From IMG/VR virus record IMGVR_UViG_2554235304_000010, positions 1 to 5,403 of that record: DNA of 5,403 bases, one strand, 5' to 3'. The stretch is from a virus. Lineage: Duplodnaviria > Heunggongvirae > Uroviricota > Caudoviricetes. Positions 1 through 1,302 of this stretch are shown in pieces (within the stretch, counting starts at the first letter, position 1; the number at the start of each line of letters is the position of its first letter). The translations under genes and the position numbers were made by a program. The notes under the pieces are model-generated. The model was not told the DNA's origin. It did no database searches and saw nothing but the letters and a program-made list of their open reading frames with translations.

Positions 1-66
1 TCAGGATATGGTTGAGGGTTACCTGGTGATGAAGTCTCTTGATCAGGAGATCTGATCAAGAGACAG
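1..66 (+). mobile_element. Terminus of an IS50/Tn5-like (IS4-family) insertion sequence; the element body lies left of the window
   Basis: Bases 48-66 AGATCTGATCAAGAGACAG are the exact reverse complement of the 19-bp IS50 inside end CTGTCTCTTGATCAGATCT as I recall it, ending in the terminal CAG at 66. A short inverted repeat (35-46 TCTCTTGATCAG / 52-63 CTGATCAAGAGA) sits at the tip. The eutA reading frame is blocked by TGA at 40-42 and eutA-like translation begins only at 67. Confidence 0.55.
2..54 (+). CDS. Transposase C-terminal fragment (3' end only; 5' end outside window)
   Basis: The frame is open from the window edge to TGA at 52-54, which lies inside the terminal repeat, as in IS50 where the tnp stop lies in the inside end. 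Translation ...QDMVEGYLVMKSLDQEI resembles the Tn5 Tnp C-terminus ...DGFLAAKDLMAQGIKI recalled from memory. Only 17 codons are visible, so this is weak. Confidence 0.35.
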
Positions 67-1302
67 GTCGATAAACAGGGTGGTTTAAAAGAAGCGGAAC
101 TGAAAACCTTAATCCTCAAGCAATATCAGGCTGCGGGCATTGCGCCGGAAAGCGTTGATTCTGGTGCCATCATTATCACCGGTGAAAGCGCAAAAACCCG
201 CAACGCTCGCCCGGCGGTGATGGCCCTCTCCCGGTCGCTGGGCGATTTTGTCGTCGCCAGCGCTGGACCGCATCTCGAATCCGTGATCGCCGGTCACGGT
301 GCCGGGGCGCAAACCCTTTCTGAACAACGGCTGTGTCGGGTCCTGAATATCGATATCGGCGGTGGCACCGCGAACTACGCCCTGTTTGATGCCGGAAAAA
401 TCAGCGGCACCGCTTGCCTCAACGTCGGCGGTCGCCTGCTGGAAACCGACAGCCAGGGGCGCGTGGTTTACGCTCATAAACCGGGGCAGATGATAGTGGA
501 TGAGTGCTTCGGTGCAGGCACTGACGCCCGTTCGCTGACCGGCGCGCAGCTGGTGCAGGTTACCCGCCGGATGGCAGAGCTGATTGTCGAAGTGATTGAC
601 GGAACGCTCTCGCCGCTCGCGCAGGCATTAATGAAAACCGGTTTGCTGCCCGCAGGTGTTACGCCCGAAATCATTACGCTTTCTGGCGGCGTGGGCGAAT
701 GTTATCGCCACCAGCCCGCTGACCCGTTCTGTTTTGCCGATATTGGCCCGCTTCTGGCAACGGCGCTGCATGAGCATCCTCGTCTGCGTGAGATGAACGT
801 GCAGTTTCCGGCGCAAACCGTACGCGCCACGGTGATTGGCGCGGGTGCACATACCCTTTCGCTCTCTGGCAGCACAATCTGGCTGGAGGGCGTACAACTG
901 CCGCTGCGCAATTTGCCGGTGGCGATCCCAATTGATGAAACGGATCTGGTGAGTGCCTGGCAACAAGCGCTAATTCAACTGGATCTTGATCCCAAAACTG
1001 ACGCGTACGTGCTGGCGCTTCCCGCCTCGCTGCCTGTGCGTTACGCCGCGGTACTAACGGTCATCAACGCGCTGGTCGATTTCGTCGCGCGTTTTCCGAA
1101 TCCGCATCCCCTGCTGGTGGTGGCCGGGCAGGACTTTGGTAAAGCTCTGGGCATGTTGTTGCGCCCACAGCTACAACAACTCCCGTTGGCAGTCATTGAC
1201 GAAGTGATTGTCCGCGCGGGGGACTATATCGACATTGGTACGCCTCTTTTTGGCGGATCGGTTGTGCCGGTGACGGTGAAATCACTCGCATTTCCTTCCT
1301 GA
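67..1302 (+). CDS. eutA: Ethanolamine ammonia-lyase reactivase EutA, 5'-truncated by the upstream insertion
   Basis: In-frame translation from 67 (VDKQGGLKEAELKTLILKQYQAAGIAPESVDSGAIIITGESAKTRNARPAVMALSRSLGDF...) through the stop at 1300-1302 reads as EutA, ending ...VVPVTVKSLAFPS. The frame hits a stop at 40-42, so the N-terminal ~55 codons are missing. The longest ATG-initiated remnant is the 217-1302 ORF in the supplied track. Confidence 0.88.
   Translation, partial: VDKQGGLKEAELKTLILKQYQAAGIAPESVDSGAIIITGESAKTRNARPAVMALSRSLGDFVVASAGPHLESVIAGHGAGAQTLSEQRLCRVLNIDIGGGTANYALFDAGKISGTACLNVGGRLLETDSQGRVVYAHKPGQMIVDECFGAGTDARSLTGAQLVQVTRRMAELIVEVIDGTLSPLAQALMKTGLLPAGVTPEIITLSGGVGECYRHQPADPFCFADIGPLLATALHEHPRLREMNVQFPAQTVRATVIGAGAHTLSLSGSTIWLEGVQLPLRNLPVAIPIDETDLVSAWQQALIQLDLDPKTDAYVLALPASLPVRYAAVLTVINALVDFVARFPNPHPLLVVAGQDFGKALGMLLRPQLQQLPLAVIDEVIVRAGDYIDIGTPLFGGSVVPVTVKSLAFPS

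Follow-up and report, generated by a model that had tools for sequence, protein, structure and literature searches.

An IS50-like terminus within eutA of Escherichia coli E2348/69: most probably the right end of a natural ISEc13 element

The stretch of DNA analysed here (5,403 nucleotides, called the window below) runs into the ethanolamine gene eutA only from its position 67, and the question raised by this locus is what the preceding 66 bp are and how they came to interrupt that gene. The first-pass annotation took them for the end of an IS50-like element and left the choice between a natural IS50 relative and an engineered Tn5 derivative. An origin in native eutA or eutH sequence, which it had named as a reason to give up that view, can be set aside: window 1-66 aligns to neither gene, and eutA begins exactly at 67.

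The last 19 bp before eutA, at window positions 48-66 on the minus strand, read CTGTCTCTTGATCAGATCT and agree with the IS50 inside end at 19 of 19 positions, as had been claimed. When up to three mismatches were allowed, this perfect copy was the single match in the window, and none appeared in 200 shuffled sequences. The two Dam sites seen earlier in the 19-mer are the GATC motifs at 49-52 and 54-57; a third starts just upstream, at 41. The last 17 codons of a transposase gene and its TGA (2-55, plus strand, frame 2; stop at 53-55) precede eutA, so that the frame ends within the terminus, again as described. An IS50 copy from a Citrobacter plasmid served for comparison; its transposase aligns over all 476 aa with the crystallised Tn5 enzyme (1026 bits) and shows only a few substitutions. 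This copy ends in ...ATCAAGATCTGATCAAGAGACAG / ...GGGATCAAGATCTGATCAAGAGACAG and has the same 19-mer, in which the stop codon is identically placed. The codons which lead into the terminus do differ from those of Tn5, because the Tn5 protein ends in ...GFLAAKDLMAQGIKI and the frame in the window is translated as QDMVEGYLVMKSLDQEI*.

Upstream of the window, where the annotation had advised looking, an intact transposase gene and a second terminal repeat are present. The complete element is 1550 bp long and occupies positions 4517-6066 of the locus sequence L001, of which 4517-6000 lie upstream of the window (the end of the coding sequence, L001 6055, is window position 55). Its transposase is an intact protein of 457 aa. 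Structures of the Tn5 transposase in the PDB match its residues 6-453 with E = 6e-84. Residues D93, D193 and E323 align with D97, D188 and E326 of Tn5, and Y316, R319 and K330 align with Y319, R322 and K333, E323 being also the E of the YREK signature. The Pfam families Tnp_DNA_bind (70 bits) and DDE_Tnp_1 (31 bits) score over their cut-offs, Dimer_Tnp_Tn5 stays just below its own (24.1 against 26.7 bits), and the NCBIfam model NF033590 reaches 514 bits against a cut-off of 160. The protein thus shares with that of Tn5 the single reading frame, the N-terminal DNA-binding domain, the DDE/YREK core and a Tn5-type C-terminal region.

The full identity of the 19-mer and the shared position of the stop codon might be taken to mean that the element is a genuine copy of IS50 (Tn5), or a remnant of one with diverged last codons. 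The divergence, however, extends over the entire protein, which is 39% identical to the IS50 transposase (187 of 480 aligned positions) and, at 457 against 476 aa, is 19 aa shorter. A megablast search with the whole element returned no IS50-type records, and IS50-type elements appeared only as 39% tblastn matches. The element is therefore far from the >90% DNA or >95% protein identity to IS50R by which IS50 proper is recognised, and an IS50 copy is very improbable here. Among the IS50 sequences themselves, a variant is found directly downstream of blaCTX-M-25 on the Citrobacter freundii plasmid p6_B (L002 295-1827), with the left end CTGACTCTTATACACAAAT, a 9-bp duplication GCTCGCTGC and the change of E327 of the Tn5 transposase to D.

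Members of the IS50 subgroup of the IS4 family are defined by a single transposase reading frame with the DDE triad and a Y-(2)-R-(3)-E-(6)-K signature (PMC2266710). The element has one uninterrupted frame of 457 aa with both the DDE and the YREK residues, and it shows the CTGTCTCTT-type terminal inverted repeats and the target duplication of about one helical turn that are characteristic of the subgroup. NCBI lists the exact protein, WP_000244358.1, as 'IS4-like element ISEc13 family transposase' in three settings: in eutA, on pMAR2 and on a further, unrelated plasmid of E. coli; the name ISEc13 as used here comes from this NCBI (PGAP) annotation. By the convention of ISfinder, two sequences are the same element at >95% protein or >90% DNA identity to the reference. 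Compared by way of the NCBI annotation rather than the ISfinder reference sequence, the eutA copy differs from ISEc13 in nothing detected. As the element is the catalogued ISEc13, the finding of an insertion in eutA is an ordinary one and already known.

The events at eutA can be followed in some detail. The right-hand 66 bp of the element (1-66, plus strand) match NC_011601.1 at 100% in a region annotated 'IS4-like element ISEc13 family transposase', and across window 1-1400 four assemblies of E. coli O127:H6 E2348/69 agree with the sequence at every base; other E. coli genomes match from base 67 only, through eutA and eutB. The gene order in NC_011601.1 is eutH, a 5' fragment of eutA, the ISEc13-family transposase WP_000244358.1 (457 aa) and a 3' fragment of eutA from window position 67. 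The first 59 codons of eutA, the product of which is the reactivase of ethanolamine ammonia-lyase, have thus been separated from the remainder, and the 3' part (67-1302, plus strand), aligned to the intact eutA of strain 95-3322, is for this reason a pseudogene; both halves are given as incomplete in RefSeq. The insertion is confined to the four assemblies of the E2348/69 lineage.

In strain 95-3322 the empty site reads ...CCCCTGTCGATAAACAGGG... / ...TTTACCCCTGTCGATAAACAGGGTGG... and contains the motif GTCGATAAAC once. At the occupied site this motif flanks the element on both sides, its right copy at window 67-76 (plus strand) and its left copy outside the window at L001 4507-4516. A 9-bp target duplication of GTCGATAAA at 67-75 had been predicted; a duplication is indeed found at both ends, but it is 10 bp long, GTCGATAAA plus C, and the base by which a 9-bp duplication would fall short is present at both junctions. 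The eutA event is a clean transposition with target duplication. A strict 9-bp duplication was considered for the element and is ruled out, as the eutA copy has 10 bp with the element ends fixed and the copy between aaeR and tldD, with the same transposase, has 8 bp.

The outermost sequences of the element are CTGTCTCTTATACACAAAT on the left and AGATCTGATCAAGAGACAG on the right. Both start with CTGTCTCTT, and 13 of 19 positions are common to the two ends. The left end CTGTCTCTTATACACAAAT agrees at 17 of 19 positions with the IS50 outside end, and differs at two positions from the synthetic mosaic end. The likeness to IS50 thus extends to the whole layout, with an inside end on the right, a near outside end on the left and the transposase stop codon inside the right terminus. 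The left terminus (L001 4517-4553) can be described as a natural near-mosaic end, that is, an outside-end sequence with T4 of the inside end. It overlaps a hairpin with an 11-bp stem, which in relatives is followed by a run of T, like an inward-facing terminator.

The 19-bp right end is exactly the I-end of mini-Tn5 vectors, and this, together with the left end only two mismatches away from a mosaic end, is what could be expected if laboratory mutagenesis had left an engineered mini-Tn5 or other Tn5 derivative in the chromosome. The sole content of the element, however, is its own transposase gene, 39% identical to that of Tn5 at the protein level, and neither a marker nor vector sequence lies between the ends. 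Mini-Tn5 and transposome insertions carry a marker or reporter between the ends and no internal transposase, and are found as single copies in laboratory strains only; here, sequences matching ISEc13 occupy about 30 places in the chromosome of E2348/69 and two on its plasmid pMAR2, where one copy is 100% identical across all 1550 bp. Matches to the element are found at up to 32 places per genome. Of the 5,426 complete E. coli genomes, 874, isolated from many hosts, contain at least 80% of it (near full length). It is found on natural plasmids of Escherichia, Shigella and Salmonella, and its relatives extend to Vibrio, Serratia, Rahnella, Budvicia and other genera. Another chromosomal copy in E2348/69, situated between aaeR and tldD, likewise codes for WP_000244358.1 and is flanked by an 8-bp direct repeat of its own.

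These observations leave an engineered origin hardly credible. ISEc13 is evidently a natural, multi-copy and recently active insertion sequence, and of the two origins offered by the first-pass annotation, the natural relative stands on its own transposase, its many copies and its presence in wild strains, while the engineered derivative falls with the lack of any marker or vector sequence. Window 1-66 is, with a probability of roughly 96%, the right end of an intact, recently active, natural ISEc13 of the IS4 family and IS50 subgroup, which transposed in the E2348/69 lineage into eutA at about codon 60.

The right end holds, in addition to the terminus, a subterminal inverted repeat (window 34-64) composed of the arm GTCTCTTGATCAG at 34-46, the spacer GAGAT and a second arm at 52-64, with the third GATC at 41-44. 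Facing inward, the arm at 34-46 repeats terminal positions 3-15 and lies within the last codons of the transposase. The two 13-nt arms are 100% complementary, and when folded as a DNA hairpin the repeat has an energy of -13.7 kcal/mol (z = -6.1). A hairpin is found at the left element end too. No such inward-facing copy was found when it was looked for in IS50, and the two elements differ in this respect.

The terminal 33-mer is also found in Rahnella, Budvicia, Chania, Scandinavium, Phytobacter, Serratia, Pantoea, Citrobacter, Salmonella and other Escherichia. At 13 loci across Enterobacterales a perfect 35-bp palindrome, CTGTCTCTTGATCAG-GAGAT-CTGATCAAGAGACAG, stands alone without a transposase (L003 1499-1533 in E. 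coli ATCC 8739, and L004, L015, L022, L023, L025, L028, L029, L032, L033, L037, L044 and L045). As such solo palindromes with the same terminus occur in many genomes, those of E. coli included, it might be asked whether window 1-66 is itself a solo terminal fragment, either a dead remnant or of the 35-bp type, and not the end of a complete element. In the window, however, the 33-mer is preceded by AA, as in full elements, whereas the solos have CT at this place, and the sequence continues into the uninterrupted 457-aa reading frame, a left end and a matching direct repeat. It is most unlikely, then, that the window shows anything other than the end of the complete ISEc13.

The subterminal repeat is shared by distant relatives. 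ISVa18 and an IS4-family element of Vibrio parahaemolyticus are about 51% identical to ISEc13 in protein and have an identical left 19-mer; both Vibrio relatives retain the right subterminal repeat (L057 1714-1748 and L058 1691-1724). As they were found by protein similarity, these relatives are free of the bias of a search with the 33-mer. Position 15 of the right terminus differs from ISEc13 in both. In the V. parahaemolyticus element alone this is a paired change, the terminus ...GATCAC being accompanied by the internal copy GTGATC..., whereas the repeat of V. cholerae is shorter. Both elements have 9-bp direct repeats, and both are inserted in the loop of a small hairpin; they differ from ISEc13 in their longer spacer and in flanks that do not follow the CCYCY/RGRGG rule described below. 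The inward-facing copy could be a second transposase-binding site, a regulatory hairpin or a hairpin at the 3' end of the mRNA. A search against Rfam was negative both for the window and for the solo locus of E. coli.

The way in which ISEc13 moves may be described by homology with IS50/Tn5, which is a structurally characterised relative at 39% protein identity with identical or near-identical ends. A single DDE transposase would bind the two 19-bp ends and excise the element by a cut-and-paste reaction through hairpins at the ends. Insertion would then proceed by a staggered cut, which at eutA would have duplicated the 10 bp GTCGATAAAC. The GATC sites in the terminus of the inside-end type probably make the use of this end sensitive to Dam methylation, and thereby damped, as in IS50. 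The ISEc13 protein has no methionine at the position where the Tn5 inhibitor starts, Q52 being aligned with M56 of Tn5, which is a further difference between the two. A simple sigma-70 scan of the element gave no promoter-like site, and because of this no promoter can be proposed for the transposase. The terminal 29-mer of the element was absent from the literature searched, in which eight papers name ISEc13 a single time each, among the output of tools or in surveys of plasmids.

The places of insertion also set ISEc13 apart from IS50. Its direct repeats are of 8 bp (three copies), 9 bp (four copies) or 10 bp (two copies, the one in eutA included), with none at two further copies, in contrast to the 9 bp of IS50, and its flanks are C-rich and G-rich. 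Goryshin et al. are said to have reported in 1998 the Tn5 target consensus A-GNTYWRANC-T. Among 26 distinct right flanks of ISEc13-like elements (drawn from L001 and L005-L048), G is found at +13 in 25; purines take up nearly all of +11 to +14, C is enriched at +1 to +3 and G at +7 to +9, and the composition is flat from +16 to +25. The nine enterobacterial left flanks mirror this pattern. The insertion sites follow mini-palindromes of the form CCYCY-N8-10-RGRGG, many of which are the centres of terminator hairpins or of BoxC-like repeats. The site in eutA (window 67-80), CCCCT-GTCGATAAA-CAGGG / CCCTG-TCGATAAA-CAGGG, is look-alike coding sequence and fits the C-rich/G-rich palindromes of the clade. 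Drawn from 26 right and nine left flanks, this preference is an apparent bias in sequence comparisons and less than a demonstrated specificity.

IS1397, ISKpn1, IS621 and the IS4-family element ISRm22 are known to insert into the middle of short extragenic palindromes that occur as repeats (PMC1525189). The ISEc13 clade resembles them in its apparent insertion at palindrome centres. Their targets are REP/BIME units, whereas those of the ISEc13 clade appear to be BoxC-like repeats, terminator hairpins and look-alike coding sequence.

The solo palindromes described above occupy sites of a similar kind. Their flanks obey a half-site rule: G stands at +13 in every one of the 13, and C at -13 in 11 of them by visual count. 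The two 9-mers which flank them are not direct repeats. Half-sites without direct repeats would point to an undescribed origin of the solos or to a palindrome converted later. The solo of E. coli ATCC 8739 lies between trmL and lldD, in place of about 85 bp that in K-12 separate the centres of two BoxC-like repeats. This allele is present in roughly 600-800 E. coli records, or about one genome in seven, as estimated from evenly spaced rows of the hit list. A search of 5,426 genomes for a precursor, in which a full ISEc13 would lie between trmL and lldD, found none. The flanks of the solos of Citrobacter and S. diarizonae closely resemble each other, the 5-bp spacer being oppositely oriented in the two. 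At the folA-proximal solo the comparison with an empty site failed because E. coli carries an unrelated REP there; for a second solo, of cryptic Escherichia, no E. coli counterpart was found, and the comparisons made gave no empty site for any solo.

A formation of the solos by deletion between direct copies of GTCTCTT, one in the left end and one internal, was considered and rejected: it predicts that target duplications are retained, and none of the 13 solos has one.

A different short form is found in Rahnella perminowiae, where an element of 281 bp (L026 177-457) has an outside-end-like left terminus and the 33-mer as its right terminus, without a transposase. It resembles a miniature form left by deletion within an ISEc13-like insertion sequence.

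The flanks, the internal terminus copy and the solos may be put together in a broader proposal, for which we would give somewhat less than even odds: the ISEc13 clade, unlike the near-random Tn5, would be directed to the centres of CCYCY-N8-10-RGRGG palindromes, would carry a conserved second copy of its terminus and would yield 35-bp palindromes of two termini by an undescribed origin or conversion. On the sequence comparisons made here, nothing in the present analysis might be new except the targeting, the copy of the terminus inside the element and the solos.

The rest of the window bears on the state of the eut operon. The eutB gene is intact. In window 2696-3440 the homology to eutC stops at about 3162 and is followed by the remnant of a pin-type invertase gene and then by prophage tail-fibre genes. 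As eutC is truncated by this prophage remnant and eutA is split by the insertion, the eut operon of E2348/69 is disrupted twice. The window departs from NC_011601.1 in one respect only: the segment 3451-5333, bounded by 19-bp inverted repeats at 3432-3450 and 5334-5352, is inverted. The sequences of the inversion repeats, within window 3432-5352, are AAACGTTGGTTTGGGAGAA / TTCTCCCAAACCAAGGTTT. Region 3451-5333 is an invertible tail-fibre segment of the Pin/Gin type, which is found in both orientations among the assemblies of the strain; of the adjacent invertase gene only the remnant is left.

The insertion at this locus is a natural one in a well-known pathogen, enteropathogenic E. coli, and not a laboratory artefact. 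It is of mild interest that an element 39% identical to Tn5 in its protein uses ends which are identical or near-identical to those of IS50, a natural near-mosaic left end among them; as the ends are so close at this protein identity, the cross-recognition of ends and the control by Dam can be put directly to the test. Should experiments bear out the target bias and the solo palindromes, the insertion sequences that target palindromes would gain an example from the IS50 subgroup. For the organism, the eut operon of E2348/69 is to be read as naturally inactivated, with eutA split and eutC truncated, and this bears on work on ethanolamine signalling and metabolism in E2348/69, which is a model EPEC strain.
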